A DNA stretch of 64,000 nt from an uncultured candidate division Zixibacteria bacterium (GTDB lineage Bacteria; Zixibacteria; MSB-5A5; SM1-73). Location of the stretch: assembly GCA_903908285.1 (NCBI GenBank), contig CAIVRH010000029.1, positions 102,037 through 166,036 of the forward strand, read 5' to 3'. The position numbers and the translations under genes were made by a program. This document shows, piece by piece, positions 16,047 to 64,000 of the stretch; position 1 is the first letter of the stretch, and each line of letters opens with the position of its first letter. The notes under the pieces were generated by a model. The model was given only the letters and a program-made list of their open reading frames with translations. It made no database searches and was not told the origin of the DNA.

Positions 16047-16088
16047 TTTATCTTTTCAGACTGGATATCTCGATTAAGACTCTTATCT

Positions 16089-16146
16089 CAAGTGCCCTGC
16101 GCACCTGAAAAACGAATAGTGGCAGGAGCATGAGGTATCTGACATA
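16089..16146 (-). repeat. cassette-boundary element, extended copy d
   Basis: caagtgccctgcgcacctgaaaaacgaatagtggcaggagcatgaggtatctgacata, downstream of the REC gene stop. Confidence 0.5.
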
Positions 16147-16205
16147 ATACAGCTACTAACTACTTTGTAGCAATACAGTTGTTGTAGCTAACTTAGTATT
16201 AGAAC

Positions 16206-16952: not shown

Positions 16953-17090
16953 TTGTTACCCTCGCTTGATTGGTTGACCTAGTAAATGTTTGCTATTCAA
17001 CTATTAACTATATGGTTACTTCATCTCACATTTTTGACACTTACCAGCGACAAAAAGGATTAATGTGCATTGGTTCCAAAGATTCACAGA

Positions 17091-17147
17091 TCAAGTGCCC
17101 TGCGCACCAGACAAATGAATAGTGTCAAGAGCACGGGACTGCTGATC
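17091..17147 (-). repeat. cassette-boundary element, extended copy e
   Basis: tcaagtgccctgcgcaccagacaaatgaatagtgtcaagagcacgggactgctgatc, downstream of the ABC ATPase stop. About 80% identical to copy d. Confidence 0.5.
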
Positions 17148-17208
17148 TACCTACTATTTCGCCTCTCCAATCTGAAACTAAAAATCCTTAATAAATTTTT
17201 TATCTTAA

Positions 17209-19002: not shown

Positions 19003-19015
19003 TTTCTATTATTGT

Positions 19016-19264
19016 TTACGTATTATTTTTACCAATAAATTCCAATGAATCTGTCTGTAAGTGGTATTCGATCATGCCGAGTAAATATAAAAAATCCAAC
19101 GACGGCACAAAAACATGTTTTACATCTTCTCCAATCTTGCCAACCAAATACTGCAATACCTCACTATATTCCATTACTCTGTTATTCTCGAACAGCTTAA
19201 TAAGCATGGAGGATACCCTGACTACAGATAAGTCCAAATCCATATATTTTGTCGGGGTTATCAT
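19016..19264 (-). CDS. small alpha-helical 'middle component' (LmuC-like) of the ATPase module
   Basis: 82-aa ORF tightly sandwiched between the effector and the ATPase: 4-nt overlap upstream and a 13-nt gap downstream, which suggests translational coupling. Confidence 0.35.
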   Translation of the reverse strand: MITPTKYMDLDLSVVRVSSMLIKLFENNRVMEYSEVLQYLVGKIGEDVKHVFVPSLDFLYLLGMIEYHLQTDSLEFIGKNNT

Positions 19265-20199: not shown

Positions 20200-20541
20200 C
20201 TCTTAACGTATACCAAATTACTTATTAATAAACTTATCTTAAAAAAATAGCTGTTAGATTTTGCCGCTTATTTAATCTATTATATTAGAAAGGAGATAAA
20301 AACCAAGAGAAAAAAGCCACTCAAATCTATATTTTGAAACTTGCCCATATCCAGCTTAAATTTGGAAGATCAGGTGTCATGCACACTTGACAAAAAAAAG
20401 TATCAAGAACACGTATCTCCTCATCTATTATTATCTATTCATAAACTATTATAATCATTCATGCCATCTTGTCAAGCACTTAAGAACAGTAATTATGCGT
20501 TTTTACATAATAATTTTTCTAACAAGCGCGGGCTTCGACCA

Positions 20542-30227: not shown

Positions 30228-31862
30228 CTATTTCCGCAGCTGGGCTACCTCCTTCTCCAATGCCGATATCCTTTCCTGTTGATCTTTCACGATCTTCAAA
30301 AGATAAATCGCCACCTTATCGTATTTCACTGCATCCGGCTTGCCTTCACCGTCATGAATCACCAGATCCGGAAGCGCCTGCTCCACCTCTTCTGCGATGA
30401 GGCCAATATCTTCCTCTCCGGTGGTCTTCCAGGTAAATCCCACGGGATTCAAAAGTAGAACTTTCTCCGGATCAATCTCAAGCTCTTTTATCTTCTCTTT
30501 ATATCTTCTGCTCGAATTCTGCTTCCACAGTTTCCCGTTAGCATCCACTAAAACAGCGGCCCCGCCTCCGGTGGGGATCCCTCTCAATCTCGCTGTCCCG
30601 TTAACATCCAGTTTCTCGGTGGGACCGGTTATTCCGATGCCCACGTTGCGACCGGAGGCTTGCATGACGGTGTTGCCTGTTCCAGATTGGATGAAAAGAT
30701 CTCCGTTGTTGGCTTCCAGGTCTATGGCAGCACCATCCGTTCTTAGCATGATCTCTTTTGCCCCGGCCGAGGTTGAAGCTCGCAGACGGATGCGGTTGCC
30801 CACCACGTCCGTCTTGTAGGCAGGAGCGGAGGTGCCGATTCCGACATAGCCACTGTTAGTTATTTCCAATGCTCCTCCCAGGGTTAATAGATGAATGGAA
30901 CCGTTAGGCCGGTTGTTGAAAATACGCATATGATCCGGATAGCTGATGGCTCCTTCATCGTATAGAACCATTCCCGCCAGAGTCCCGTTTTCGTTCTCAA
31001 AGTAGATCCCTTCACTTGAGGATGACCCCGCGTCCAGATTCGTAATTTGTATACCCACTAAATCGTTTTTATCATCCGAGATATGCAGCATTTGTGAAGG
31101 TGACAGCGTACCAATGCCCACATAGCCATTGCTCTCGACTTTCATAAATCCTTCGGCGGCTCCTAAAAAAATGCTACCATTGGTCCTGTTATTCCAAACG
31201 CTCAGTTGATTGGGAAAATAGGAACTTCTCTCATTATTTACATGGATCCCTGCTAGCAACCCCCCTTCAGCCCCGAAGTAGATCCCTTCTTGGGATAAAA
31301 CGCCTGTGTCGGGATTTTCAATGACTATGCCGGCAAAGCCGTTTTTTTTGTCATAAATGTGCAGCTTCACGTGTGAAGAATCTATCCCAATTCCCACATT
31401 ATCGGTACTGGTGGTCAGCCTTATGTCCTCCCCATTATCGGTCCAACCACCGCCAGTAGGGGCAATTGGAGCTATCCTCGCGCTGTCTGCCACCCAGGCA
31501 CGATAAGCATAGCCTGTGCTGGTGATCCTCATGCGGGGCATGGTTTCGGCACCCAATCCGACCTCCAGCCAGTAAGATTGATCGAATGCCAGATTCAAAG
31601 CGCTTACCTTGCCTAAAGCTATATTAAACAAACCGTTCTGAACTTGAACTCCGTTTTGAGTTTCACTCCATTTGAGAGTTCCCCCTGTCGTATCATCGTA
31701 TATTTTGAAGGTCAAATTGTAAGAACCACTCAGGGGAGTACCGGCATCATCCGTAAGCATCCCCTGATAGTTAATCAGCTTAGGAATTTCAGCCAGACTG
31801 ATACCAAAAAACGCAAATGAGATGATTAAACCGGAAAGAATAATATAACGAATCATTACCAA
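30228..31862 (-). CDS. secreted tail-fibre-like surface protein with a C-terminal S74 intramolecular-chaperone (auto-processing) domain
   Basis: Signal peptide. Repeated N[VY]GIG motifs. The C-terminus RRYKEKIKELEIDPEKVLLLNPVGFTWKT...GLIAEEVEQALPDLV...YDKVAIYLLKIVKDQQERISALEKEVAQL matches the endosialidase/tail-fibre chaperone domain. Confidence 0.55.
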   Translation of the reverse strand: MVMIRYIILSGLIISFAFFGISLAEIPKLINYQGMLTDDAGTPLSGSYNLTFKIYDDTTGGTLKWSETQNGVQVQNGLFNIALGKVSALNLAFDQSYWLEVGLGAETMPRMRITSTGYAYRAWVADSARIAPIAPTGGGWTDNGEDIRLTTSTDNVGIGIDSSHVKLHIYDKKNGFAGIVIENPDTGVLSQEGIYFGAEGGLLAGIHVNNERSSYFPNQLSVWNNRTNGSIFLGAAEGFMKVESNGYVGIGTLSPSQMLHISDDKNDLVGIQITNLDAGSSSSEGIYFENENGTLAGMVLYDEGAISYPDHMRIFNNRPNGSIHLLTLGGALEITNSGYVGIGTSAPAYKTDVVGNRIRLRASTSAGAKEIMLRTDGAAIDLEANNGDLFIQSGTGNTVMQASGRNVGIGITGPTEKLDVNGTARLRGIPTGGGAAVLVDANGKLWKQNSSRRYKEKIKELEIDPEKVLLLNPVGFTWKTTGEEDIGLIAEEVEQALPDLVIHDGEGKPDAVKYDKVAIYLLKIVKDQQERISALEKEVAQLRK

Positions 31863-38457: not shown

Positions 38458-38588
38458 GGTTTAATAAGAAAATAATCTGTCCGCTGTCCATCGTCCGTCC
38501 AGACGGACGCCCGTCTGGGCGCCGTCCGCCGCAAAACATGGTTTCAAATACTTAAGCTGTGGACGGTGAATCGAATATCACCAGTGGA

Positions 38589-39595: not shown

Positions 39596-41836
39596 GTGAA
39601 ACGTTTTCTATTTTTTTCTCTATTGGTGTCTTTTGTGTTATCTTTCTGGATCGGGGGTAGCGTCGCCCTTGCCCAAAATCTGAATGCACCTCAAAAAGAA
39701 ACGATCTACACCGACCAAAACACCACCCCCAGCCAATTTCACCAGATGGAAGCAGCCATGAAGCAACAGAGATTGAACGAAATCCGTAAGCTGGGAATTG
39801 CCTTCCCCTTAAAAGAGACTAAGAACCAGAGCGATTTTGATGCCCGGTACTACCGTTTGGATCTTAAACTCAATGACACCACCCAGATTCTGACCGGAGC
39901 AGTATATCTCTACGGAACAGCGTTGATCAACAGCTTCAATGTGGTGGAGCTGAATTTCTTCGATAATGCGCAGATGTATGTGGACTCATGCAAAAGCAAC
40001 AACGGGATTTTATCTTTCAATCGGGGCAGCAACATCCTTCGCATATTTCTGAATGGCACTTATAACTCCGGCCAGCCCTTTGGAGTAACCGTTTACTATC
40101 ACGGCCATCCCCTGGAGGGGGGGCTTCAGTCGTTCGATTGGAGCACCCACGGCAGCCCGTCTGTGCCGATCATCAGCACCTTGAGCGAGCCCTATTTTGC
40201 CCAATCCTGGTGGCCATGTAAAGATCTTCCCCGGGACAAGGCGGATTCGGTTGATATCAATGTGACTGTCCGCAGCGATTTATATGTGGCTTCCAACGGG
40301 CTTTTGAGGGAGATAGTCAACAACGGTTCCACCAAAACTTATAAATGGCACGAGAAGTATCCCATCGCCACCTATTTAGTCATGCTTGCCACAACCAATT
40401 ATTCCATCTTCTCCAACTGGTACCATAATCTGTCCGGCGACTCCATACCGGTGACCTATTACGTATACCCGGAATACTTGTCGCAGGCTCAATCCACTTA
40501 TCCGGTTACCCCATCCATGATCCGATTCTTTGCCGAAACATTCGGTGAATATCCCTGGGTGGAGGAAAAATACGGGATGGCTCATTTCACCTGGGGCGGG
40601 GCGATGGAGCATCAAACCTGCACCAGCATACTGTATAATTGGTATTCCGATTGGGTGATAGCCCACGAGCTGGCTCATCAGTGGTGGGGTGACTATATCA
40701 CCTGCCACAACTGGCATCATATCTGGCTGAATGAGGGATTTGCTTCCTATTGCGAAGCCCTGTGGGAGGAACATCTCGGGGGATCCAGCGGCTATCATTC
40801 CTACATGAACGGCATGCAATTCTTCAGTGGGGGAAGCATCTTCATACAGGATACTACAGATGCTAATGGCATCTTCGGCAACATAGTTTACGATAAAGGA
40901 GCGCAGGTTTTGCATATGCTCAGACATATCGTGGGCGACTCCACCTCCTTCCGGATTTTCAGAGATTTTTATTCCGATCCCCGCTATGCTAACGGGGTGG
41001 CAGAAACCGAGGATTTCCAGGGTATATGTGAAGCCGCTTCCGGCATGGATTTGAATTATTTCTTTCAGGAATGGATTTACGGAACCTACTATCCCAAATA
41101 TCAGTATTCCTTTATGACCGAACCGGCCGGCGGAGGAACGGCTACCGATGTTTACATCCATATCAATCAGACTCAGACCACCAATCCCACTTATTTCACC
41201 ATGCCGATAGATTTGAGGGTCACATCGTCAACCAAAGATACCATTGCAGTTGGTTTCAACGATCCGCGCCACAAAGATTTCAAGGTACGAGTACCCGGCA
41301 CCAATGTCAGTGTGAATTTAGATCCGAATGTCTGGATTTTAAGAACGGTCAGCTCCACCACTTATGGGATGAACATAGTCACCACTGATCTTGAGGCTGC
41401 ATCTCAGTTGTCCGCTTATGCGGAGACCTTAATGGCCAAGGGAGGCACCCTGCCATACAAGTGGAAATTGGACAGCGGAAATCTGCCGGATGGGCTTCAG
41501 CTGGATTCTTTAACCGGAGTAATATCCGGAGTTCCGACGGTAAAAGACAGCTTTGATTTTACGGTAAAGGTAACCGATTCCAGCGCACCGAACAAAACCG
41601 ATACCCAACCGCTTTATATCCTGGTGGGTGATAGTCCGTTCATCCGGGGAGATGTCAACCGCGACGGGTTGGTGGATATAGGTGATGTGATATACCTGAT
41701 CAGTAATCTGTATATTCACGGACCGGATCCTCTGCCCTACGCCGCAGGCGACGTCAATTGTGATGGCATAATTGAGGTGTCGGATATTATCTATCTGATC
41801 AATTATCTGTTTAAATCCGGTCCGGGACCCTGCTAA
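39596..41836 (+). CDS. secreted M1-family metallopeptidase with C-terminal Ig-like and double dockerin-like domains
   Basis: HELAHQWWGD plus WLNEGFASY. An Ig-like segment LPYKWKLDSGNLPDGLQLDSLTGVISG. The C-terminus GDVNRDGLVDIGDVIYLISNLY...GDVNCDGIIEVSDIIYLINYLFKSGPGPC is two dockerin-type Ca-binding repeats. Confidence 0.85.
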   Translation: MKRFLFFSLLVSFVLSFWIGGSVALAQNLNAPQKETIYTDQNTTPSQFHQMEAAMKQQRLNEIRKLGIAFPLKETKNQSDFDARYYRLDLKLNDTTQILTGAVYLYGTALINSFNVVELNFFDNAQMYVDSCKSNNGILSFNRGSNILRIFLNGTYNSGQPFGVTVYYHGHPLEGGLQSFDWSTHGSPSVPIISTLSEPYFAQSWWPCKDLPRDKADSVDINVTVRSDLYVASNGLLREIVNNGSTKTYKWHEKYPIATYLVMLATTNYSIFSNWYHNLSGDSIPVTYYVYPEYLSQAQSTYPVTPSMIRFFAETFGEYPWVEEKYGMAHFTWGGAMEHQTCTSILYNWYSDWVIAHELAHQWWGDYITCHNWHHIWLNEGFASYCEALWEEHLGGSSGYHSYMNGMQFFSGGSIFIQDTTDANGIFGNIVYDKGAQVLHMLRHIVGDSTSFRIFRDFYSDPRYANGVAETEDFQGICEAASGMDLNYFFQEWIYGTYYPKYQYSFMTEPAGGGTATDVYIHINQTQTTNPTYFTMPIDLRVTSSTKDTIAVGFNDPRHKDFKVRVPGTNVSVNLDPNVWILRTVSSTTYGMNIVTTDLEAASQLSAYAETLMAKGGTLPYKWKLDSGNLPDGLQLDSLTGVISGVPTVKDSFDFTVKVTDSSAPNKTDTQPLYILVGDSPFIRGDVNRDGLVDIGDVIYLISNLYIHGPDPLPYAAGDVNCDGIIEVSDIIYLINYLFKSGPGPC

Positions 41837-54326: not shown

Positions 54327-54425
54327 ACCCTCTCTCTGACTCTCCTCCACGGACGTGCCCGTATGGGCGTCAAGGGAGAGAGAATCTACCTACCTCCTCC
54401 CTTTACGGGAGTGGGGGAGGGTGAT
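54327..54425. repeat. composite element: family-1 arms enclosing a GC-rich family-2 palindrome
   Basis: ccctctctctgactctcctccacggacgtgcccgtatgggcgtcaagggagagaga...cctcctccctttacgggagtgggggagggtg. Confidence 0.6.
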
Positions 54426-54584
54426 GAAAAGTTCAAAATTCAAAGATTCAATTCAAAAATCAAAATTTGCAACCAGATTCTTTTCTTTCTAATCTTGAAT
54501 TTTGCATTGTAATTTTTCGTTTTGCTCTTTGAATTTTGAATTATACTAGATCTCGTTCTTTCTCTTCTCGATCAACCAAATCGT

Positions 54585-56261
54585 CTATTTCAAGAGAACC
54601 ATCTTTTTTGAAGATGTATACTCTCCTGTTTTCAACTGATAAAAATAAACTCCGCTAGACAATTGCACGCCTCTATCATTCATCCCATCCCATTTGACGG
54701 TGTAATCTCCCGCCCATTTGGATTCATCCACCAGAGTTCTCACCTTTTGACCAAGAAGATTATAGATTTTCAAGGTGGTGGGGATGGGAACTTTGATCTT
54801 TAAACCTTGAACTTTGAACTTTATTGTGGTATTGGGATTAAACGGATTCGGATAATTCTGGGAAAGAACAAATTCCGAAGGCTTACTTGAGCTTTCGGTT
54901 TCATCCTCCACCGCGCTTGGGTTTTGAATATACTTGAGGGTGACGCAATCCATTCCGGTACTGTTACCCAAGCTGCTTCCGGTCACATAGACATGGCCCG
55001 AATCGTCCACCGCTACAGCGCAGGCAGAGTCGGTGGCGATGGCCGGTCCGTCGTATCTGGCTACCCAGGCGGTATCTCCATTGGAAGTATACTTAATGGT
55101 GGCATAATCCTTGGAATTTCCACTGCCATAGCTATATCCAGTCACATACACGTTTCTGGAACTATCCACAGCTATGGCGAGTGCTTCATCTTCGCTGTTT
55201 CCCGGTCCATTGTATCTTCTCACCCAGGCAGTATCCCCGCTGGGAAGATATTTGATGGTGGCAAAGTCGTAGTTAGTCCCATAACCATAACTAAATCCGG
55301 TCACGTAGACATTGCCAGAACCGTCCACGGTAATAGCAGTAGCGTCATCGACTTGGTTATCCGGTCCATTGTATCTTCTCACCCAGGCAGTGTCCCCGTT
55401 GGGAAGATACTTGATGGTGGCGAAGTCGTTGCTGGTCCCGTTGCCATAGCTAAATCCGGTCACATAGACATTGCCCGAACCATCTACAACTATGGCGTTA
55501 GCTTCGTCCCACAGGTTTCCCGTTCCGTTGTATCTTCTTACCCAAGCTGTATCTCCATCCGACTCATACATTATGGTGGCATAGTCTACATCTGTTATAC
55601 TACCTTTGCTATATCCGGTCACATAAGAGTTACCGGAATTATCCACGACTATGGCGTAAGCCTTATCGGTTCCGTTTCCCGGCCCATTGTATCTTCTCAC
55701 CCACGCGGTATCTCCGTTAGGTTGATATTTAACGGTGGCATAATCCTCAACGGTTCCGCTGCCATTGCTGTATCCGGTCACATAGACATTGTCCGAATCG
55801 TCCACCGCTATGGCCTCTGCCAAATCGGTGGAAACAAGGCCGTATCTTCTCACCCAGGCGGTATCTCCGTTGAGATAGTACTTTATGGTGACATAGTCAT
55901 AGAGAGTCCCACTGTCGTAACTGCGCCCCGTTACATACACACGACCGGAATTATCGACAACCATAGCAGTAACCCGGTCCCAGTAGTTGTCTGGCCCGTT
56001 GTATGTCCGCACCCAGGCAGTGTCTCCGTTCGATTTATACTTTATGGTAAGGTAATCTTCGAACGTTCCACTGCCGGTAGTATAACCGGCGACGTAAACA
56101 TGTCCCGCATGACCTATGGCGATGGCAGAACCCGCATCCGAAGAGTCCATTACACCGTTGAACCTTCTTACCCAGGCGGTGTCTACGGACTGGGCGAACA
56201 CCGGCGCGACCCACGATACAAACAGTACCATCCAAAAAACCATCCTTAAAGGTTTGGGCAT
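54585..56261 (-). CDS. secreted SBBP beta-propeller-repeat protein with a T9SS C-terminal sorting domain (paralog 1)
   Basis: Signal peptide. About ten ~46-aa repeats (DTAWVRRYNGPGN...SGNVYVTGYS.GSGT.DYATIKY). The C-terminus LSQNYPNPFNP.TTIKFKV...IYNLLGQKVRTLV...SGVYFYQLK...KKMVLLK is a T9SS CTD. Confidence 0.75.
   Translation of the reverse strand: MPKPLRMVFWMVLFVSWVAPVFAQSVDTAWVRRFNGVMDSSDAGSAIAIGHAGHVYVAGYTTGSGTFEDYLTIKYKSNGDTAWVRTYNGPDNYWDRVTAMVVDNSGRVYVTGRSYDSGTLYDYVTIKYYLNGDTAWVRRYGLVSTDLAEAIAVDDSDNVYVTGYSNGSGTVEDYATVKYQPNGDTAWVRRYNGPGNGTDKAYAIVVDNSGNSYVTGYSKGSITDVDYATIMYESDGDTAWVRRYNGTGNLWDEANAIVVDGSGNVYVTGFSYGNGTSNDFATIKYLPNGDTAWVRRYNGPDNQVDDATAITVDGSGNVYVTGFSYGYGTNYDFATIKYLPSGDTAWVRRYNGPGNSEDEALAIAVDSSRNVYVTGYSYGSGNSKDYATIKYTSNGDTAWVARYDGPAIATDSACAVAVDDSGHVYVTGSSLGNSTGMDCVTLKYIQNPSAVEDETESSSKPSEFVLSQNYPNPFNPNTTIKFKVQGLKIKVPIPTTLKIYNLLGQKVRTLVDESKWAGDYTVKWDGMNDRGVQLSSGVYFYQLKTGEYTSSKKMVLLK
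54789..54822 (-). repeat. heptanucleotide tandem tract (4 units) inside the CTD of paralog 1
   Basis: The coding strand reads TTCAAAG TTCAAGG TTTAAAG ATCAAAG and encodes KFKVQGLKIKV. Confidence 0.7.
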
Positions 56262-56366
56262 GATACTAACTCCTTTTTTAACCTACTCTATTCAATTCTG
56301 TAGCGGTTCGATTCATCGAACCCGCCAGGTCGCATAAATGCCCAGACGGGCACGTCCGTGCGACCG

Positions 56367-56570
56367 CTACTTTAATAAAACCATCTTCTTCGCTGATACA
56401 TTCTCTCCAACTTTTAACTGATAAAAATAAACTCCGCTCGATAATGGCTCGCCTTTATCATTCTTTCCATCCCATTGGACAGCGTAGTTCCCAGCCAATT
56501 TGGGTTCATCCACCAACACCCTCACCACCTCCCCAAGAATGTTGTAGATTTTTAGGGTGGTGGGGACGGG
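56367..56570 (-). other. out-of-frame T9SS C-terminal sorting domain of paralog 2
   Basis: A complete CTD coding sequence directly downstream of the (TTCAAAG)2 tract, reached by a +2 / -1 shift. Confidence 0.65.
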
Positions 56571-58050
56571 AACTTTGAACTTTGAACTTTATTGTGGTGG
56601 CAGGATTAAATGGATTAGGATAATTCTGGGAGAGAGCAAATTCCGAAGGCTTTCTTGAGCTTTCGGTTTCGTCTTCTACAGCGCTGGGGCTTTGAAAATA
56701 CTTTATAGTGGCACAATCCTCGCTTGTCCCGTTACCTATACTGCTTCCGGTTACATAGACATTGCCCGAATCGTCCACCGCTACGGCACAGGCAGAATCG
56801 ATGGAGTTGACCGGTCCGTCATATCTGGCCACCCAGGAGGAATCTCCATTGGAATCATACTTTATGGTGGCATAATCCTTGGAAGTCCCACTGCCATAGC
56901 TATACCCGGTCACATAGACATTGCCGGAACCATCCAACGCTAATGCCCTAGCTTCATCATGGTTGTTTCCCGGTCCGATGTATCTTCTCAGCCAGAGAGT
57001 ATCTCCATTGGAAGCATACTTGATGGTGACATAATATGAGGCCACCCCTGACTCGTTGCTCAACCCGGTCACATAAACGTTGCCGGAACCGTCAACGGCT
57101 ATAGCATTAGCGTTATCGACTTGGTTATATGTTCCATTGTATCTTCTCACCCAGGCAGTATCCCCGTTGGGATGATACTTGATGGTGGCATAGTCGTTGT
57201 TTGTCGTCATGCCGACACTATACCCGGTCACATAAGCGAAACCCGAATCATCTACGGCTATGGCAGTAGCCACGTCCCCCATGAAGCCAGCTGGTCCGTT
57301 GTATCTTCTTACCCAGGCAGTATCTCCGTTAGGTTTATACTTTATGGTGGCATAGTCAAAGCCTGTTCCACTGCCAGTACTCCTTCCGGTCACATATACA
57401 TTTCCGGAGCCATCCACCGCTAGGGCGCGAGCCCAATCTTCACCGTTTCCCGGTCCATTGTATCTTCTCACCCAAGCGGTATCACCATTGGGATGATATT
57501 TTATGGTAGCATAGTCCATACCGGTCCCGCTACCGGTGCTGTAGCCGGTCACACAGACGTTGCCGGAATTGTCTACCACTATGGCACCTGCGTTATCATA
57601 GGAGCTTGGGTTGTATCTTCTCACCCAGGCAGTATCACCGTTGGGATAGTACTTTATAGTGACATAATCGGAGAGCGTCCCAGTACTTTGACTGTACCCA
57701 GTTACATACACCCGACCGGAATCATCGATAGCTATAGCGTTAGCCCGATCCCAGAGGTTGGCAGTCCCGTTGTAGGTTCGTACCCAGGCAGTGTCTCCGT
57801 TAGAGTCATACTTTATGGTGAGGTAGTCATCCTGAATTTCTACGCTGTCAATACAATAACCGGCGATGTAGACATGTCCAGAGTGATCTACGACGATGGC
57901 AGAACCACCATCCGAGGAGTTTGCCTTACCGTTGTATCTTTTCACCCAGGCAGTATCAACGGATGCACCGTGAACGGATTGGGCAAACTCCGGACCAACT
58001 AAAAACAGTAACAGCACTGCTGCTAAAATCATATTTAAAGCTTTTAACAT
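56506..58050 (-). CDS. SBBP beta-propeller-repeat protein with its T9SS CTD truncated by a frameshift in a heptanucleotide tract (paralog 2)
   Basis: Same repeat architecture. The ORF ends as ...TTIKFKVQSSRPHHPKNL... An intact CTD (PVPTTLKIYNILGEVVRVLVDEPKLAGNYAVQWDGKNDKGEPLSSGVYFYQLKVGENVSAKKMVLLK*) continues in the +2 frame down to 56367. Confidence 0.7.
   Translation of the reverse strand: MLKALNMILAAVLLLFLVGPEFAQSVHGASVDTAWVKRYNGKANSSDGGSAIVVDHSGHVYIAGYCIDSVEIQDDYLTIKYDSNGDTAWVRTYNGTANLWDRANAIAIDDSGRVYVTGYSQSTGTLSDYVTIKYYPNGDTAWVRRYNPSSYDNAGAIVVDNSGNVCVTGYSTGSGTGMDYATIKYHPNGDTAWVRRYNGPGNGEDWARALAVDGSGNVYVTGRSTGSGTGFDYATIKYKPNGDTAWVRRYNGPAGFMGDVATAIAVDDSGFAYVTGYSVGMTTNNDYATIKYHPNGDTAWVRRYNGTYNQVDNANAIAVDGSGNVYVTGLSNESGVASYYVTIKYASNGDTLWLRRYIGPGNNHDEARALALDGSGNVYVTGYSYGSGTSKDYATIKYDSNGDSSWVARYDGPVNSIDSACAVAVDDSGNVYVTGSSIGNGTSEDCATIKYFQSPSAVEDETESSRKPSEFALSQNYPNPFNPATTIKFKVQSSRPHHPKNLQHSWGGGEGVGG
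56571..56590 (-). repeat. heptanucleotide tandem tract (2 units) inside paralog 2, the frameshift site
   Basis: TTCAAAG TTCAAAG only. This is 14 nt shorter than in paralogs 1 and 3. Confidence 0.7.
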
Positions 58051-58367
58051 GATTTCCCTCCATGTTTTTTGATTATTTATCGCTATCCATCTTCATCCTT
58101 CTCCCGCTTGCAGTGAATCTGTCGAATCTTCCAAGGGGAAAGACGATGACAATGTATGATACAAAATGAAAAATGCAAGCAGACGCTTGCCCCCAGACGG
58201 GAGCGTCCGCTCGTCCGGGCAAAGATGCAGTTTTAGAATCAAAATTACTTTGAATTGTCTTTACTGAATCTTCAATTTTGAATTTTATACTGTGATTTTT
58301 CATTTTGCTCTTTGAATTTTGAATTGTATTTGACCTCCTTCTTTTTCAACTCCATTAAATTAAACGA

Positions 58368-60053
58368 CTATTTTAAGAGGACCATTTTCTTCGCCAAAGT
58401 ATTTTCTCCCACTTTCAATAGATAAAAATATACTCCGCTGGCTAATTGCTCGCCCTGATCATTCTTCCCATTCCACTGAACTGTATAGTCTCCAGCCCAT
58501 TTGGGTTCATCTACCAGAGTCCTTACCTTTTGACCAAGAAGGTTATAGATTCTTAAGGTGGTGTGGAGGGGAACTTTGAACCTTGAACCTTGAACCTTGA
58601 ACTTTATTGTAGTGGTCGGGTTGAACGGATTGGGGTAATTCTGGGAGAGAGAAAACTCCGATGGTTTTTCCGAACTTTCGACTTCATCTCCCACCCCGCT
58701 TGGATTCTTGACATACTTTATGGTGGTATAGTCCGTGTAGGTCAAACTATTATAGCTGGTTCCGGTTACGTAAACATTGCACGAATCATCGACAGCTAAT
58801 GCAGAAGCCGCGTCCGTATTGTTCGCCGGGCTGTTGTATCTTATCACCCAAGCAGTGTCCCCATTCGGATAATACTTTATGGTGGTATAGTCATCGCCTG
58901 TCTCACTGCCGCCGTAACTACGTCCGGTCACATAGATATTGTCAGAATCATCAACCGCTATGGCCCGAGCCCCGTCTTCGCCGTTTCCCGGTCCCTCGTA
59001 TATCCTCACCCATAGAGAATCCCCCTCGGAATTATACTTTATCGTGGCATAGCCGGTGTTGTCATCACCGGTGTAACTGCTTCCGGTTACGTAGACATTA
59101 TCCAAATGATCTAAAACCATAGCGTAGGCGTTATCAGTGGAGTTATACATTCCATTATATCTTCTCACCCAGGCAGTGTCTCCATTCGAATAATATTTGA
59201 TGATGGTATAATCGTTATCTGTTACGGCATCATAACTATATCCACACACATATACATTATTAGAGCCATCCAGGGCTATCGCACTGGGATAATCATCGAG
59301 ATTCCCCGGTCCGTTGTATCTTCTTACCCAGACCGTATCACCCTGTGGTGTATATCTGATGGTGGTAAAATCATAGCCTGTCCCGATCCCCTGGCTATAT
59401 CCGGTTACGTACACGTAGCCGGAATCGTCCACGGTCAGGGCAAAAGCCATATCATAAGAGTTGGCCGGTCCATTATATCTTCTCACCCAGACCGTGTCTC
59501 CGTTGGGATTATACTTGATGGTGGCATAGTCCCAATTTGTATCGCTGACTTTACTATTTCCGGTCACATAGACATAGTTGGAATCATCTACCGCTACGGC
59601 AATAGCATCATCATCCAAGTTCCCCGGTCCGTTGTATCTTTGAACCCAAGCAACATCTCCATTGGGAAGATACCTGATAGTAGCATAATCATAAGAAGTT
59701 CCAAGCCCGTAACTCGCTCCGGTCACGTAGACATTGCCGGAACCATCTACCGCTAGACCATTGGCCGCATCATCGAGGTTCCCCAGTCCATTATATCTTC
59801 TCACCCAGGCAGTATCCCCGTTGGAGTAATACTTGATGGTGGCATAGTCATAATCTGTGCCGCTGCCTTTGCTATATCCGGTCACATAAACATTACCTGA
59901 GCCATCTACGGCGGTGGCTGAAACATATTCTTCGTTATTTCCCGGTCCGTTGTATGTCCGCACCCAAGCGGTATCAACCGACTCGGCAAAGGTTGGACCG
60001 ACTAACAACAACAATAAAACCAGTCCCAAAACAACCTTTAGTGGTTTTAACAT
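58368..60053 (-). CDS. secreted SBBP beta-propeller-repeat protein with T9SS C-terminal sorting domain (paralog 3)
   Basis: Signal peptide, SBBP repeats, and an intact CTD (…TTIKFKVQGSRFKVPLHTTLRIYNLLGQKVRTLV…KKMVLLK). Confidence 0.75.
   Translation of the reverse strand: MLKPLKVVLGLVLLLLLVGPTFAESVDTAWVRTYNGPGNNEEYVSATAVDGSGNVYVTGYSKGSGTDYDYATIKYYSNGDTAWVRRYNGLGNLDDAANGLAVDGSGNVYVTGASYGLGTSYDYATIRYLPNGDVAWVQRYNGPGNLDDDAIAVAVDDSNYVYVTGNSKVSDTNWDYATIKYNPNGDTVWVRRYNGPANSYDMAFALTVDDSGYVYVTGYSQGIGTGYDFTTIRYTPQGDTVWVRRYNGPGNLDDYPSAIALDGSNNVYVCGYSYDAVTDNDYTIIKYYSNGDTAWVRRYNGMYNSTDNAYAMVLDHLDNVYVTGSSYTGDDNTGYATIKYNSEGDSLWVRIYEGPGNGEDGARAIAVDDSDNIYVTGRSYGGSETGDDYTTIKYYPNGDTAWVIRYNSPANNTDAASALAVDDSCNVYVTGTSYNSLTYTDYTTIKYVKNPSGVGDEVESSEKPSEFSLSQNYPNPFNPTTTIKFKVQGSRFKVPLHTTLRIYNLLGQKVRTLVDEPKWAGDYTVQWNGKNDQGEQLASGVYFYLLKVGENTLAKKMVLLK
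58572..58605 (-). repeat. heptanucleotide tandem tract (4 units) inside paralog 3
   Basis: TTCAAGG TTCAAGG TTCAAGG TTCAAAG. Confidence 0.7.
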
Positions 60054-60091: not shown

Positions 60092-60248
60092 CCCTCTCCC
60101 TTTATCCCTCTCCCACGGACGTGCCCCCAGACGGGAGCGCTGCGCGGGCACCGTCCGCTCGTCTGGGCATCGAGGGAGAGGGGAAATCAAAATCTCACCC
60201 CTGCCCTCTCTCCCTATTGAGGAGAGAGGGACCAAGGGGGAGAGGTTA
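60092..60248. repeat. composite family-1/family-2 element (two nested units)
   Basis: ccctctccctttatccctctcccacggacgtgcccccagacgggagcgctgcgcgggcaccgtccgctcgtctgggcatcgagggagagggg... ctcacccctgccctctctccctattgaggagagagggaccaagggggagaggtt. Confidence 0.65.
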
Positions 60249-60842
60249 TTTAATAATGTGTAAAAAATCTCCCAAAAGAAACTGCATTCTTCCGATCAGA
60301 AGTGAAATCCGGGACATGACCGTGTAGCCGAAAGTGGCTCCGAAGAAAATCATTAGAAACCAGGTGCCCATCTTGGCAGTTGCGCCAAACCAGCCTTTGT
60401 GCTCCTTAGAGAAGAAGAAATAAGCCAAAGTCGATGCGATTCCCAAAAAAATGATGATCCCGTCTATGCTGGCAAAATCTTTCATGGATGCCTGCATCTG
60501 GCTGAACAATCTTGCCTGGATGGTGGCGGGTATGGCCACGCCCGCTCCTGCTCCGATGATCAAAGCTATGGATATCCGGGAAAGCCAGGTATATCTCGGA
60601 AAAAATCTCAGCAGCATGAAAATCCCCAGGATGCCCGGTATAATATAACCCAATTCCCCCTGTTTGAAAACAGGATTTACCAGTTTGGGCATAAGGGTGG
60701 TGTTTACCGCCATGACCAAAACATATCCCACTGATATGCCTACCAATAGATGCTCGGCGAATTTGTAAAAGGGATTGTCCTTATACAAAAACGAGAAGAT
60801 GCATAGGGTAAGGAAAGTGGCAATTAGAGTTTCGATGTTCAT
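60246..60842 (-). CDS. integral membrane protein, hypothetical
   Basis: About six hydrophobic helices. The start is probably the internal MNIETL at 60842. Confidence 0.45.
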   Translation of the reverse strand: MNIETLIATFLTLCIFSFLYKDNPFYKFAEHLLVGISVGYVLVMAVNTTLMPKLVNPVFKQGELGYIIPGILGIFMLLRFFPRYTWLSRISIALIIGAGAGVAIPATIQARLFSQMQASMKDFASIDGIIIFLGIASTLAYFFFSKEHKGWFGATAKMGTWFLMIFFGATFGYTVMSRISLLIGRMQFLLGDFLHIIK

Positions 60843-61029
60843 AGTTTGTCCCGTCCGCCGACTGTCGTCCGCCGACCGCAGCAAAAACTTTAATATTTGG
60901 TTTTGCGGCGGACAGCGGACGGTTGACTGCGGACAATCTTATATTCTCACTGTTAAGTTTCCCAGCCACTTCAGTGGCGTATTTTATGAACCTGACTGAA
61001 GTCAGTTGGAATATGTCCACAGTCCACAG

Positions 61030-61881
61030 CTAAAGCGGTTTTGCTGTGGACCGTGGACTATCGACCGTGGACGTTTTTCTCCTTAAGAAATAAACCACAT
61101 TTCCCCAAACGATTATAAGAACTATGACCAGATGACTCACCGACTGCGCATCCATCCCCTTTTGACCCATCCCCGGTTTTTCAAGCAGAATTTCGTATTC
61201 TGCCGCACCTTTCAGCCCGCCTAACAGCCCGACCATTTGACCGGAGGAGAGAAACGGATAGAAACTGGTGGCCATCACCGCAGTGGTGGCACAGGCGAAT
61301 TTAGGGTGATAGCGCGAGACCGCATAATCCACCCAGGTAACCGGCAGATCACCGTCCGCTACGGAAATTATCAATTTGACTTCGTTATAGTTTTTGATAT
61401 CCTTCATCATCGGAATCCGGTCCAAAGAAGTGTTATTGTAATCCTGCGGAAAAACTCTTTTTATCTCCTCTCCCATTCCCAAGATAGCCGACTGGGCTTG
61501 CGGTCTGTATCCCAAAAACACATAATCCTCCCCATAATTAGCCTGATATTCGTTAGCGGTTTCCCTTAAGAGCTGCTCTCCGATTGCGGTTCCCTCTGCC
61601 ATAAGCGCCAGGGTGATCACCTTGAGTTTTTTCTGAAAACAATGGCGCAATATTGCTTGAGCCATCGGCTTAACCTCAGGTAGAGACGAAGCCTCGTGGT
61701 CAAAGGAGATCATCATCACCGAACCGGAGTCCAATTGCTCGATGCTTTCATATACATTCCTCACCTCGGTGGTGACCTGGTTGGGCAGTCCGATTTTGAT
61801 CACCAGAGGAATGGCGACGGAAAGAGCGATTAAGACGAATATCAATTGTCGAGACAACATTCTAGGTAATTTAAAATTCAA
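61030..61881 (-). CDS. membrane-anchored hypothetical protein
   Basis: N-terminal transmembrane anchor, a ~230-aa soluble domain, and a C-terminal transmembrane helix. Confidence 0.45.
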   Translation of the reverse strand: MNFKLPRMLSRQLIFVLIALSVAIPLVIKIGLPNQVTTEVRNVYESIEQLDSGSVMMISFDHEASSLPEVKPMAQAILRHCFQKKLKVITLALMAEGTAIGEQLLRETANEYQANYGEDYVFLGYRPQAQSAILGMGEEIKRVFPQDYNNTSLDRIPMMKDIKNYNEVKLIISVADGDLPVTWVDYAVSRYHPKFACATTAVMATSFYPFLSSGQMVGLLGGLKGAAEYEILLEKPGMGQKGMDAQSVSHLVIVLIIVWGNVVYFLRRKTSTVDSPRSTAKPL

Positions 61882-62152
61882 AGTTAAAAATTAAAAATTG
61901 CAATTCAAAATCCAAAATTATTACTGTCTTATAAAGGTTCTCACAATTTAATTTTTGATTCTATCTTTTCTGTTCCCCCTAACTACCGCCTTTGGTGGTT
62001 CGACTTCCTTCGGCTTCGCCTCTGGATAAATCGCTCACCATCCTGAGCAAATCGAAGGACGGGATTTTCTACCTACCCTCTCCCCGATGGGGAGAGGGAA
62101 TGTATTTCATCAAATTTGAACCTTGGATTAAAATTTTGCAATCTGTATATGT

Positions 62153-62794
62153 TTATTTCTTTCCAAGATACGTTCTCTCAATCCCCAGGATTATCCTCAA
62201 CGACGTGGAGATGGTTCCCAGCCCGATTCCGATGTAGAGACCTCTTTTGGCGGCCATGCTGGGGGTGTTCAAAATCCAGTTGGCGGAATCCGGAATCCAA
62301 TGGGAGATGAAACTGCCCAACGGAACGCGTCCTAACATGACGATGACCGCGACTAGAAGCAGCAGACCCGCTTCCCAGCTCCGGGCACGGAAACCCCGGT
62401 AGGCTGCCGATGCCACGAAGAATGCCAAAAGCGAGAACATGGTGGATTGCATCGGGGCTTGTATGGTATTGAACATCCACAGGAAGGGCGTTCTCTCTCC
62501 GGTTCCTTTCCAAAAACCAAAGATGACCATGACCACCAGTCCCGCCAAGCCGATCAGATTATATCCCCAGCCGGATTGAGTCCGGGTGATCTTCTTTGAG
62601 CTTAGTTTAACATAACTGATTACTCCAACCAGCAGGGTGAAAACGAAGATGATCTGCATCCAGTCTAAGACCGTCTGATAGGCGGAAACAGACACCCGGT
62701 GCGGAACAAAGAACTGCACCAGCATGAAGGCACCGAAGATAAAACAAACGATGATAGGAATGATTCTTTGCATGTTAAGCAGAGTAAAATTCAA
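62153..62794 (-). CDS. integral membrane protein, hypothetical
   Basis: 213 aa with 5-6 hydrophobic helices. Confidence 0.45.
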   Translation of the reverse strand: MNFTLLNMQRIIPIIVCFIFGAFMLVQFFVPHRVSVSAYQTVLDWMQIIFVFTLLVGVISYVKLSSKKITRTQSGWGYNLIGLAGLVVMVIFGFWKGTGERTPFLWMFNTIQAPMQSTMFSLLAFFVASAAYRGFRARSWEAGLLLLVAVIVMLGRVPLGSFISHWIPDSANWILNTPSMAAKRGLYIGIGLGTISTSLRIILGIERTYLGKK

Positions 62795-62963
62795 AAAGAA
62801 AAATTTAAAAGCAAAATCAAAAAATAGCGGAACTCAAAACATAAACTCTATCTCGATATATCACGGCATCTGAAAGAATATAGTATTTCAGACCTTTATT
62901 TCTCTTTTTGTCCGAAAGCCCATAGCGGGGCATTTCGGACCTACATGGAATTTTGAATTTCCT

Positions 62964-64000
62964 TCATCCTACATTAAAAAACTCAATAATCTTATTGAAG
63001 CCCAATATTCCCGCAACACCTCCAAGTAATATCAGAAAGACTATGACCACCTTTAACCAATCCTGACCTTTGATGCTACCCAAAACCTGTTTATCCTGGG
63101 ACAAATACCCGCTGGCGACGAAAAGCTCTTCACCGATCAAAGTATAATCGCACGCAACAATAAAAAAGGCAAGTTGGATGGTGGAATCGGTTCCGGCGAT
63201 CTGAAAAGCTCCGATAGAGTTGCCGGTTTCAGCCAAGATCAGCGCTTCGGCTTCGAATGTCCCCAAGAACATGTTGGTGGCGGGAAGCTGTCGGGTCATG
63301 ATCCCATCCACTGCCGCTGCGTAACCAAACTGGCTCTGGGTGACAAAGAATATGTTATCGGGATGGTATGCCTCGGGATGACCTGCCCGGGAACATGCCT
63401 CTTTGACCACCTCCTGGGCAGTAGTCATCACCACCGGATCATAGTTGGGGAATATCAGAGGAGTATTGTATTCTGCGGTCTTCTCCGCCACACTGGAAAG
63501 AATATTCATGGATGCCATGGTGGCAACCCGGTCCATCTTTCCCAAACCCGCAGAGTAGAGTATCGGCTTTCCCATTTCGGTGGCCCGGCCGATGGCATCA
63601 TCGATGGCTTGTAGACCGGAGATGGGTCTGATATAAAGCTTTTTGGCTTTTTTGGCATACCGGACGAATCCGAGTATAAATATGAAAGAAATGATTACAC
63701 CCAAAAGGACGTTGACTCGCTGGGTATGAAACCATTGGCCGCGGGAGATTACCGGACCAGTTATGGGAGAAACCAAGACATCCGCTCCCTTTCTGTATTT
63801 CAGAAGATAGGAATATCTTATGCCATCCTTAACACCGGTATCGATGTATGTTGTCTCTTTTGACGAGACTTTCGCCACCAACTGAAAATTCTCATCCATG
63901 TCTGTTGCTCTCCAGATTTCATATTCACTGATGGCGGGGTCTTCGGACAAACCTTCCAAAGCCAGGGTGATGCTTTCACCCTTGTCGTTGGGAGTATCCA
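62964..64000 (-). CDS. FN3-like / transmembrane hypothetical protein, 5' end beyond the window
   Basis: The reading frame stays open to the window edge; the caller's start at 63959 is a TTG codon. N-terminal FN3-like segment (YEIWRATDMDENFQLVAKV...YSYLL), one transmembrane helix, and a C-terminal transmembrane helix. Confidence 0.45.
   Translation of the reverse strand, partial: DTPNDKGESITLALEGLSEDPAISEYEIWRATDMDENFQLVAKVSSKETTYIDTGVKDGIRYSYLLKYRKGADVLVSPITGPVISRGQWFHTQRVNVLLGVIISFIFILGFVRYAKKAKKLYIRPISGLQAIDDAIGRATEMGKPILYSAGLGKMDRVATMASMNILSSVAEKTAEYNTPLIFPNYDPVVMTTAQEVVKEACSRAGHPEAYHPDNIFFVTQSQFGYAAAVDGIMTRQLPATNMFLGTFEAEALILAETGNSIGAFQIAGTDSTIQLAFFIVACDYTLIGEELFVASGYLSQDKQVLGSIKGQDWLKVVIVFLILLGGVAGILGFNKIIEFFNVG

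Follow-up and report, generated by a model that had tools for sequence, protein, structure and literature searches.

The three genes described here belong to a very common gene type, encoding an SBBP beta-propeller followed by a T9SS C-terminal sorting domain (CTD), and the only unusual point about them is that the middle copy, P2, is without its tail after a 14-base slip in a 7-base repeat. The array consists of ordinary genes of this type plus one copy probably inactivated recently by slippage, and the locus probably arose when a single gene was triplicated in tandem, specifically in the lineage of this uncultured Zixibacteria genome. The window that we analyzed is a 64-kb stretch of this genome, in which three adjacent ORFs (P1, P2, and P3), all on the minus strand and 514 to 561 aa long, were confirmed at the limits originally predicted. 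The encoded proteins have 63 to 71% identity to each other, indicating that they are paralogues. The main features of the array are as follows.

54585..56261, minus strand: P1, 558 aa; matches to SBBP (117 bits), Por_Secre_tail (31.0 bits; cut-off, 27), TIGR04183 (33.6 bits; cut-off, 23), FlgD_ig, and CHU_C
56193-56261, minus strand: P1 signal peptide (residues 1-23)
P1, about residues 26-449: eight-bladed SBBP propeller, followed by an acidic/Ser linker
54588-54860, minus strand: P1 type A T9SS CTD (about residues 468-558)
56506..58050, minus strand: P2, frame-0 ORF of 514 aa; signal peptide and complete eight-repeat SBBP propeller (131 bits)
58368..60053, minus strand: P3, 561 aa; signal peptide (residues 1-23) and eight-bladed SBBP propeller (residues 26-449)
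P3, residues 451-463: linker, modeled at low confidence; residues 467-559: CTD beta-sandwich
54924..56249, plus strand: antisense ORF, 441 aa, across P1

The long antisense ORF had also been noted before; it is present, but we judge it to be spurious because it is contained entirely in the coding region of P1, for which the family evidence on the opposite strand is strong.

The expectation that these proteins are SBBP beta-propellers was borne out in all three, with matches to the Pfam profile PF06739 of 117 to 131 bits against a cut-off of 20.5 (E values of 1e-34 to 1e-39). The signal peptide expected on each protein can likewise be read from the sequence, and all three are Sec/SPI-like (a K-containing n-region, a hydrophobic core, and xFA|Q/E). 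The repeats themselves had been described as about ten units of about 46 aa, which needs revision: there are eight per protein at a spacing of 51 to 54 aa, and Tandem Repeats Finder, independently of the protein repeat count, returned a DNA period of 159 to 162 nt (53 to 54 aa). An AlphaFold2 model of P3 (mean pLDDT of 83.9, pTM of 0.74) has 32 strands in 8 groups of 4, corresponding to an eight-bladed propeller, together with a seven-strand Ig-like C-terminal sandwich. The predicted domain layout of each gene would thus be a Sec/SPI signal peptide, an eight-bladed SBBP ("delta-60") propeller of 8 x ~53 aa, a short acidic/Ser-rich linker, and an Ig-like type A T9SS CTD of ~90 aa.

The only solved SBBP-type propeller structure is that of CylK (PDB 7FH6 and 7RON), a Friedel-Crafts alkylating enzyme of Cylindrospermum licheniforme, and its seven-bladed propeller was the best PDB match both by sequence (hmmsearch E value of 5e-30, profile positions 178-410) and by fold (Foldseek E value of 2e-21). 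Propeller enzymes are also numerous among the other fold neighbours (lyases, glycoside hydrolases, DFPase, and paraoxonase), so the array proteins could act as secreted enzymes instead of as adhesins or binding modules. We regard this as quite improbable: the CylK match is confined to the propeller scaffold, with 19 to 23% identity and a TM-score of 0.52, and CylK has an extra N-terminal Ca-binding domain, required for its active site, that is absent here, while it lacks a signal peptide or CTD context. Furthermore, the invariant propeller columns are scaffold residues (D-T-x-W, V-T-G, and Y-x-T-I-K-Y), whereas the loop positions vary, and there is no obvious conserved cluster of polar residues; no evidence was found here for the same chemistry as CylK. 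Two other families offer partial likenesses. The LipL53-family SBBP lipoproteins of Leptospira (NCBIfam NF047494) have the same repeat type and match over most of the propeller, but the scores (121 to 140 bits) are far under the equivalog cut-off of 400 bits, the lipobox cysteine is absent here, and LipL53 has no T9SS CTD. PorZ of P. gingivalis (PDB 5M11), ranked 6th by fold (E value of 2e-10), also places beta-propeller(s) before a type A CTD, but it is a T9SS component with two propellers of a different family (TM-score of 0.34), and no sequence-level match to it was found.

A T9SS-type CTD had been predicted on each protein. This holds for P1 and P3, the only copies with the domain in frame, where PF18962, TIGR04183, FlgD_ig, and CHU_C all scored over their cut-offs; it fails for the frameshifted P2, whose 514-aa ORF gave no CTD family match in Pfam and TIGR04183 profile searches, although an orthologue with a full CTD (P0122) indicates that P2 descends from a CTD-bearing gene. 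The Por_Secre_tail scores are barely over the Pfam cut-off (27.6 to 31.0 versus 27), those of FlgD_ig are slightly higher, and an hmmsearch against PDB sequences matched the tail to the PorU CTD as well as to the FlgD Ig domain. No paper linking Zixibacteria with T9SS was found in the literature searched, and we therefore infer the export route from the P. gingivalis/F. johnsoniae paradigm. By this analogy, Sec would export the protein, which would fold in the periplasm; the CTD would then be recognised by the T9SS translocon and cleaved off, leaving the propeller attached to, or released from, the cell surface, where it could act as a putative binding platform. Only the fold class and the loop variability suggest a binding function, and CylK, the closest relative with a solved structure, is an enzyme.

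Zixibacteria may instead lack T9SS, in which case the FlgD-Ig/CHU_C-like domain would have another role, such as cell-envelope attachment or a different export route. Consistent with this, no T9SS core gene (GldK/L/M/N, SprA/Sov, PorV, PorU, or PorZ) was present among the ~50 ORFs of the window or in the 10 kb past its left end, the literature search gave no paper on T9SS in Zixibacteria, FlgD_ig scores slightly above Por_Secre_tail, the exported proteins of this organism include some with dockerin type I tails, and dockerin replaces the CTD in some SBBP homologues. The portion of the genome inspected amounts to only ~74 kb, however, and the curated cut-offs of both TIGR04183 and PF18962 were passed by a domain that is strictly C-terminal on a protein with a Sec signal peptide and that terminates in the customary K-x-x-L-L-K type motif. 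The identical architecture is found in Bacteroidota whose T9SS is known, and T9SS is counted among the features of the FCB superphylum (PMC11205867). We consider a role outside T9SS unlikely on these grounds.

The P2 lesion lies in a heptanucleotide tract (ARGTTCA) that has 3 units in P2 versus 5 in P1 and P3.

54788..54822, minus strand: P1 CTD tract, 5 imperfect units (AAGTTCA AAGTTCA AGGTTTA AAGATCA AAGTTCC), encoding KFKVQGLKIKVP; period 7, 5.0 copies
56569..56589, minus strand: P2 tract and frameshift site, 3 units (AAGTTCA AAGTTCA AAGTTCC), shortened by 14 nt relative to P1, P3, and the orthologues
58570..58604, minus strand: P3 CTD tract, 5 near-perfect units (AAGTTCA AGGTTCA AGGTTCA AGGTTCA AAGTTCC), encoding KFKVQGSRFKVP; period 7, 96% matches
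56367..56588, minus strand: P2 CTD remainder in the +1 frame, 73 open codons from 56588 down to 56370 ('SSKFKVPVPTTLKIYNILGEVVRVLVDEPKLAGNYAVQWDGKNDKGEPLSSGVYFYQLKVGENVSAKKMVLLK'), with a stop at 56367-56369

The P2 ORF departs from the CTD frame after 'NPFNPATTIKFKVQSS' (residue ~494), and its last 22 residues, ending in 'RPHHPKNLQHSWGGGEGVGG', are unrelated to the CTD. When the frame is repaired, the P2 CTD has 78 to 79% identity to those of P1 and P3, and its dN/dS (0.10 to 0.17) is not above that of P1 versus P3 (0.11). The orthologue P0122, which is 90% identical to P2, carries 'KFKVQGSKFKVP' with 5 units and the full CTD, and the orthologue DNA of three further loci (L207, L208, and L210) also has 5 units each. 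Two units (14 nt) of the original five would accordingly be missing from the P2 tract, which codes for the first CTD loop, likely through replication slippage. As predicted from its reading frame, the P2 product keeps the signal peptide and propeller but has lost CTD strands beta2-beta7, so that its export by T9SS should not be expected; in P. gingivalis, RgpB stays in the periplasm when its CTD lacks the 2 C-terminal residues, and the targeting signal of HBP35 lies within the last 22 residues (PMC11285876). Because the CTD remainder is undecayed and the 90%-identical orthologue is intact, the loss appears to be recent, and it also appears to be fixed in the population. The 3-unit allele is identical in L081, L082, and further contigs from several independent assemblies, and the frameshifted members of the P2 cluster (at least 90% identity; 514 or 508 aa; ~10 contigs from several samples) all share it, with the limit that these are consensus assemblies in which minority in-frame variants could be hidden.

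Tetra- to heptanucleotide tracts act as contingency loci in surface-protein genes of Neisseria, Haemophilus, and Helicobacter, and the array resembles these in having a short tandem repeat within a surface-protein ORF where a change in unit number (here of two) shifts the frame. The tract could therefore be a phase-variation switch, in which slipped-strand mispairing couples or uncouples each propeller paralogue and its CTD, turning surface display ON or OFF, with P2 caught in the OFF state. The repeat is perfect in P2, 96% matched in P3, and a perfect 5x repeat in L210; exactly two units separate P2 from its 90% orthologue; the P2 CTD is fully kept in the +1 frame with an omega as low as in the intact copies; and other passenger domains of the lineage have CTDs with the same tract. 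Yet the tracts are short (3 to 5 units) and degenerate in P1, L207, and L208, and 5 units are kept in P1, P3, and four orthologues at 60 to 80% identity, a conservation of length across species unlike that of contingency genes. Within-population polymorphism was likewise not seen, given the single allele of the ~10 frameshifted contigs; a tract scan of metagenomes returned 120 loci, 0 of them in a CTD context; and the tract sits at the 3' end, where a shift removes the sorting domain and not the whole protein. Such a switch is thus an unlikely explanation, and reversible phase variation at P2 is possible but unsupported.

It is far less probable still that P2 gains its CTD during translation, by programmed +1 frameshifting of the ribosome within the tract or immediately beyond it. 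Reading in the +1 frame is uninterrupted from 56588 to the normal end of the CTD, and slipping at any point of the tract would yield a plausible CTD (e.g., ...TTIKFKVQ-VPVPTTLKIYN), but no slippery or hungry codon can be recognised, and the position at which a shift would restore the fold has neither a stimulatory Shine-Dalgarno-like sequence nor a stop. The frame-0 stop comes 22 codons too late, such that a shift there would leave nonsense for strands beta2-beta3, and the in-frame CTD of the orthologue argues against frameshifting as the ancestral mode. Slippage inactivation remains our preferred account of P2.

The original prediction also viewed the genes as a diversifying, antigenic-variation family, a view for which our data give no support. 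Pairwise dN/dS among P1, P2, and P3 is 0.18 to 0.28 (dS of 0.7 to 1.6) and therefore gives no sign of diversifying selection, and no recombinase, invertase, or silent cassette was found nearby among the ORFs of the window. One face of the propeller, on which the A-B and C-D loops lie, evolves faster than the rest; these loops have 39 to 58% amino acid identity and an omega of 0.24 to 0.61, below 1 even in the most variable of them, compared to 65 to 75% identity and an omega of 0.16 to 0.27 for the propeller strands. The loop differences would be compatible with different ligand specificities under overall purifying selection.

SBBP homologues are abundant across FCB-group phyla (>7,900 at an E value of ≤1e-10), the nearest being 70 to 80% identical and from Zixibacteria MAGs. 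The taxon is further supported by GyrA, whose cluster at ≥90% identity contains a protein named Candidatus Zixiibacteriota. Signal peptide, SBBP propeller, and CTD occur in the same order in proteins combining PF06739 with PF18962/TIGR04183 from Zixibacteria, Ignavibacteria, WOR-3, Latescibacteria, KSB1, and Bacteroidota, including the cultured genera Niastella, Longitalea, and Paraflavisolibacter. In Bacteroidota, Ignavibacteria, and WOR-3, the majority of homologues measure ~900 to 980 aa, about twice the length of the short eight-blade form seen here, and the array further differs in its CTD subtype, with a longer first loop encoded by the heptanucleotide repeat, and in its one frameshifted copy. 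Tandem arrays of two or three SBBP genes were present at 6 of 80 related loci (e.g., L066). The syntenic locus L208/L209 has one SBBP gene between a 208-aa gene and DUF1611, which points to lineage-specific duplication in the array, and a closer relative has at least two SBBP genes and the start of a third.

The spacers contain three further elements.

54420..54550, minus strand: conserved AT-rich element downstream of P1 and upstream of the DUF1611 gene; 23-nt core at 54520-54542
58220..58335, minus strand: homologous AT-rich element downstream of P3; 23-nt core at 58303-58325
60126..60167, no strand assigned: GC-rich palindromic (REP-like) element upstream of P3

The near-identical 3' flank noted earlier for P1 and P3 was recovered, its 23-nt sequence AATTCAAAATTCAAAGAGCAAAA occurring exactly twice, at these two cores (chance expectation of 0), within ~105 to 150 nt of homologous AT-rich intergenic sequence. 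This flank appears to have been duplicated along with the gene. We rejected it as a hallmark of a variation system, as the same sequence lies downstream of a single-copy orthologue in another genome: the element after P1 shares ~90% identity with the sequence following the L208 orthologue, with one compensatory pair change. It forms an imperfect ~34-bp hairpin (arms at 54432-54466 and 54506-54540; MFE of -26.4 kcal/mol, z of -2.7), and the element after P3 folds no better than shuffles (z of +0.16). Related copies of the REP-like element are present in every array spacer, at 54351-54367, 56341-56357, and 58192-58208 (12 matches versus 3.2 expected).

The locus probably encodes three Sec/T9SS-routed, eight-bladed propeller binding proteins, of which the middle copy (P2) has recently been disabled for export; its notable feature is a heptanucleotide-encoded loop in the C-terminal sorting domain (CTD), together with a slippage deletion that removes this domain from the middle paralogue. 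The three adjacent SBBP ORFs of the original prediction were recovered at the limits it gave:

54585-56261, minus strand: P1, 558 aa
56506-58050, minus strand: P2, 514 aa
58368-60053, minus strand: P3, 561 aa

All three proteins match the SBBP model PF06739 far above its Pfam gathering cutoff of 20.5 bits (117.2 bits for P1, 131.4 for P2, and 127.3 for P3; E values of 1e-34 to 1e-39), with five to six individually significant stretches in each. The repeat architecture first proposed, about ten units of ~46 aa, is wrong, since each protein splits at a D-T-A-W-V anchor into eight repeats spaced 51 to 54 residues apart, and Tandem Repeats Finder, which is independent of that anchor, gave DNA periods of 159 to 162 nt within each gene; the corrected architecture is 8 x 53 aa. 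The delta-60 repeat model TIGR02608 (cutoff, 76.5 bits) was barely exceeded by P1 (77.2 bits), with P2 and P3 under it (65.1 and 56.7 bits). Sec/SPI-like signal peptides, also part of the earlier reading, can be read from the sequence of all three proteins; they end in xFA before Q or E and have no lipobox cysteine (e.g., MLKPLKVVLGLVLLLLLVGPTFA followed by ES, in which the n-region is basic, the hydrophobic core spans 12 residues or more, and positions -3 and -1 hold small residues). The long antisense ORF at 54924-56249 does exist, and we likewise judge it spurious.

AlphaFold2, given an alignment of 16 sequences, predicts P3 (mean pLDDT 83.9, pTM 0.74) to have 32 beta-strands in residues 26 to 449, arranged as eight four-strand units in a closed propeller, followed by a disordered linker (residues 451 to 463) and a seven-strand C-terminal sandwich (residues 467 to 559; pLDDT 74 to 88 in most blocks). 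The CTD of P. gingivalis cargo proteins is a 3+4 sandwich whose inter-strand loops vary widely (PMC11285876), and the fold predicted for the P3 CTD matches it; the profile of the family also matches the PorU CTD (6ZA2) and the FlgD Ig domain. The only solved relatives detectable by sequence were the CylK propeller (E value of 5e-30), FlgD Ig domains, and the PorU CTD, and a Foldseek search with the P3 model returned propellers as its top matches, with CylK first (E value of 2e-21, TM 0.52) and PorZ sixth. Identity with the Leptospira LipL53 family of SBBP lipoproteins (equivalog NF047494) was considered and rejected; P1 to P3 score 121 to 140 bits against a cutoff of 400, and the cysteine of the LipL53 lipobox is missing from their signal peptides.

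The CTD of P1 scored 33.6 bits with TIGR04183 (cutoff, 23) and 31.0 bits with PF18962 (cutoff, 27), and that of P3 scored 29.7 and 27.6 bits; both C termini also exceed the curated cutoffs for FlgD_ig and CHU_C, and in both proteins the domain stops 3 residues short of the C terminus. The expectation that each of the three proteins carries a T9SS CTD thus stands for P1 and P3 and fails for P2, whose annotated frame had no match to PF18962, TIGR04183, FlgD_ig, or CHU_C in Pfam and NCBIfam profile searches. A CTD could be found in P2 only across a frameshift. Just after the NPFNP-TTI codons of the CTD stands a tandem 7-nt repeat (ARGTTCA) that encodes the first loop of the domain:

54788-54822, minus strand: P1 tract, five units, imperfect
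56569-56589, minus strand: P2 tract, three units (AAGTTCA AAGTTCA AAGTTCC)
58570-58604, minus strand: P3 tract, five units (AAGTTCA AGGTTCA AGGTTCA AGGTTCA AAGTTCC)

P2 has no CTD match because its tract is 14 nt shorter and the frame is lost: frame 0 runs on as ...KFKVQSSRPHHPKNLQHSWGGGEGVGG and then stops, and the remainder of the CTD lies in the +1 frame as 73 open codons (...KFKVPVPTTLKIYNILGEVVRVLVDEPKLAGNYAVQWDGKNDKGEPLSSGVYFYQLKVGENVSAKKMVLLK) with a stop at 56367-56369. P2 is therefore better annotated as a frameshifted gene than as a shorter paralogue. In P. gingivalis, removal of two C-terminal residues from the RgpB CTD leaves the protein stuck in the periplasm (PMC11285876); the P2 product is without CTD strands beta2 to beta7, and we infer that it should not be a T9SS substrate. 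The heptanucleotide-encoded loop of this CTD subtype is a mutational hot spot able to strip the sorting domain from its cargo. Programmed frameshifting that restores the P2 CTD is scarcely credible, as no slippery site exists where a shift would restore the fold.

An assembly error was ruled out as the source of the frameshift, the identical allele being present in independent assemblies from different samples. The three-unit P2 tract recurs in two near-identical contigs, L081 (ERZ27313154; 100% identity over 10 kb) and L082 (ERZ18628054; 99.96% identity), and the cluster of proteins with at least 90% identity to P2 consists of products of 514 or 508 aa, encoded on about ten contigs, and of one 565-aa protein from a JGI sample, P0122. 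Up to the tract, P0122 and P2 share 90% identity; P0122 then continues in frame (KFKVQGSKFKVPVHTTLKIYD...) to a normal CTD end; its array is syntenic, with a P3 orthologue adjoining it. Orthologous DNA on contigs L207, L208/L209, and L210 has five tract units each (perfect in L210), and the five-unit peptide is present in the protein orthologues P0015, P0045, and P0117. Five units, in frame, are therefore the ancestral state, and the P2 allele of the window is derived from it by the loss of two units, now fixed in the population.

A tandem 7-nt repeat inside an ORF, where a difference of 14 nt (three units in P2 versus five in P1, P3, and the orthologues) shifts the frame, is also what reversible phase variation of P2 would use. 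However, P2 has three units in all of the near-identical assemblies, which are consensus assemblies in which minority alleles are invisible, the difference in unit number is seen only between ~90%-identical orthologues (P2 and P0122), and the five-unit tract is kept across species. We therefore regard phase variation as unlikely, and the lack of any sign of ongoing length variation argues for a one-off slippage event over an active switch. A broader version, in which the CTD-loop heptamer repeat of Zixibacteria and their relatives is a slippage-prone switch that reversibly uncouples particular cargoes (one of the three propellers in this array) from their secretion signal, is a long shot; if true, surface display would be phase variable at the level of the sorting domain and not of the whole protein. 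Length heterogeneity of the tract, if present in reads, would for the first time hint that Zixibacteria use simple-sequence phase variation and that regulation can act at the T9SS signal.

A metagenome scan for the tract (ARGTTCAARGTTCAARGTTC) found at least 120 loci, none in a CTD context among the matches listed, a result that was uninformative. A CTD-only protein search, whose candidates were mostly short or partial and did not include P3 itself, showed the KFKVQGS[RK]FKVP loop attached to other passenger domains as well. Two homologous proteins, P0020 and P0182, one an SBBP protein and the other with a different passenger, have an extra insert of ~19 aa in the same CTD loop (QNKAVDGSQFMVHSPVPTT and HGKAADGSQFIVHSPVHTT); it looks like a duplicated or inserted module, and the loop thus tolerates large length changes. 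Stand-alone T9SS-type CTD-only ORFs of ~100 aa were seen on two long Zixibacteria contigs, L203 (1866-4294), where the ORF shares 4 nt with the end of a 712-aa gene, and L205 (2387-4306), where it lies 207 nt beyond the end of a 468-aa gene. They may be cargo genes broken by a frameshift or passenger/CTD pairs that are genuinely split, and they could also belong to the putative switch.

The original prediction viewed the array as a diversifying family of the kind found at adhesin or antigenic-variation loci. The pairwise dN/dS comparison that it proposed, made after repair of the P2 frame, gave the following values, with codons also partitioned by modelled secondary structure:

P1 and P2: 71% protein identity, dS 0.68, dN/dS 0.28
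P1 and P3: 63% protein identity, dS 1.58, dN/dS 0.18
P2 and P3: 64% protein identity, dS 1.44, dN/dS 0.19
A-B and C-D loops (one propeller face): 39 to 58% amino acid identity, omega 0.24 to 0.61
Strands: 65 to 75% amino acid identity, omega 0.16 to 0.27
B-C and D-A loops: 55 to 72% amino acid identity, omega 0.11 to 0.24
CTD: 78 to 79% amino acid identity, omega 0.10 to 0.17

Positive selection was not detected among P1 to P3 by this coarse test, in which dS is near saturation (dN/dS of 0.18 to 0.28, with loops at no more than 0.61), and no recombinase or invertase adjoins the array; the locus qualifies neither as a contingency locus nor as one for antigenic variation. Once its frame is repaired, the CTD of P2 is under the same constraint as those of P1 and P3. 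The faster-evolving propeller face is the probable ligand-binding surface in the model, and we think it rather improbable that the propellers are enzymatic rather than binding.

At the syntenic locus of a relative, in the order DUF6754 ... 208-aa gene, SBBP, DUF1611, Peptidase_S11, only one SBBP gene is present (P0045, with 70% identity to P3), so the three-gene array is a lineage-specific tandem expansion. Such arrays are not rare, with two to three adjacent SBBP copies in 6 of 80 related loci. More than 7,900 of the 8,000 candidates scored were homologues at an E value of 1e-10 or below, the combination of SBBP repeats and CTD is shared with cultured Bacteroidota, and NCBI already has names for the family ("SBBP repeat-containing protein" and "T9SS type A sorting domain-containing protein"). 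In one lineage of an uncultured phylum, the locus expands a widespread and functionally uncharacterized class of surface or secreted propellers, and its value is mostly one of annotation. Upstream of the array (60246-63959) are four co-oriented membrane-protein genes, one encoding DUF6754 (62964-63959; E value of 9e-107) and three without a family match; the DUF6754 gene and the 213-aa gene are syntenic with the SBBP locus in L208.

The near-identical 3' flank described for paralogues 1 and 3 was confirmed, the 23-nt core AATTCAAAATTCAAAGAGCAAAA being present at exactly two sites of the window, one downstream of P1 and one downstream of P3 (chance expectation, 0). The two downstream regions align for ~150 nt past the stop codon, and P2 is without the flank. 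In L207 and L208 the orthologues are likewise followed by the AT-rich flank, and the L208 flank is ~90% identical to that of P1 whereas the proteins are only ~64% identical. The P1 copy can form an imperfect hairpin of ~34 bp (z score of -2.7) that is retained in L208 with one compensatory change; the P3 copy has none (z score of +0.16). The flank is thus conserved intergenic DNA that was copied together with the gene; it may serve as a terminator, or as a regulatory hairpin in front of the gene that follows. We rejected it as a marker of a variation cassette, since homologous intergenic DNA is also present at the relative's single-copy locus. An Rfam search over the whole window gave no match, and a scan for sigma-70 promoters and terminators was informative only in placing one terminator-like hairpin after P3, at 58175-58190.

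Among ~50 ORFs of the 64-kb window scanned with NCBIfam and Pfam, and in 10 kb past its left end, no T9SS component (GldK/L/M/N, SprA/Sov, PorV, or PorU) was found, and no paper linking Zixibacteria with T9SS was found in the literature searched. Possession of a T9SS has been cited as a characteristic of the FCB superphylum (PMC11205867). GyrA falls in a cluster of at least 90% identity with a protein named Candidatus Zixiibacteriota, and the nearest named SBBP relatives are from Zixibacteria. We give little credence to the alternative that the CTD is not used for T9SS in this organism. Two other proteins of the window end in dockerin type I domains:

24968-26635: DUF362 plus dockerin
39596-41836: Peptidase_M1, He_PIG, and dockerin

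On several Zixibacteria SBBP propellers of ~512 to 535 aa (P0055 to P0057 and P0100), dockerin replaces the T9SS CTD, which suggests that this lineage has two address tags that can stand in for each other at the C terminus.

Two kinds of intergenic repeat were also noted, the first a REP-like, GC-rich palindromic family built on CCCGTCTGGG / CCCAGACG and GGGAGAGGG / CCCTCTCCC, and the second AT-rich heptad tracts of five to eight (A/T)TTTTGA(A) units on the coding strand, full of TTTG motifs:

7876-7910, 10793-10820, 38510-38519, 54351-54367, 56341-56357, 58192-58208, and 60126-60167: REP-like copies
60092-60182 and 62076-62098: GGGAGAGGG palindromes
7503-7554, 61868-61911, and 54428-54467: AT-rich heptad tracts

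The REP-like motifs had 12 matches versus 3.2 expected and 6 versus 0.85 expected, and each spacer of the array contains a copy, so these elements may have mediated the tandem duplication. The AT-rich tracts immediately precede the start codons of the genes at 6954-7496 and 61030-61881, and they also lie upstream of the DUF1611 gene; we presume that they could be arrays of Bacteroidetes-type promoter elements. A GTCCACG/GTCCACA heptamer hairpin (61015-61072) straddles the stop codon of the gene at 61030-61881, which therefore ends in ...STVDSPRSTAKPL, resembling the alternative CTD-loop variant YTVHSPRSTVHS of the homologues P0031 and P0080. This hints at heptamer repeats of two flavors, located in intergenic DNA as well as within CTD loops.

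The window is otherwise housekeeping DNA (gyrA, mnmE, folC, gdh, Hox-type hydrogenase, NuoF-like genes, an ABC transporter, and peptidases). A 544-aa protein amid these genes (30228-31862) has a tail-fiber-like architecture: its N-terminal part matches the Bdellovibrio "mosaic adhesive trimer" fiber family, and its C-terminal domain is Peptidase_S74 (endosialidase chaperone). Genes for a caspase-like Peptidase_C14 (12410-13246) and a papain-like Peptidase_C1 (13491-14537) adjoin each other. A low-GC island at 16000-20200 (0.34 to 0.39, versus ~0.46 elsewhere) holds defense-like genes (the last two entries below) together with a response-regulator gene:

16206-16952: PhyR-like response-regulator domain protein
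17209-19002: TrlF-like AAA ATPase
19261-20199: Mrr_cat nuclease fused to CTD12 of ABC-3C systems
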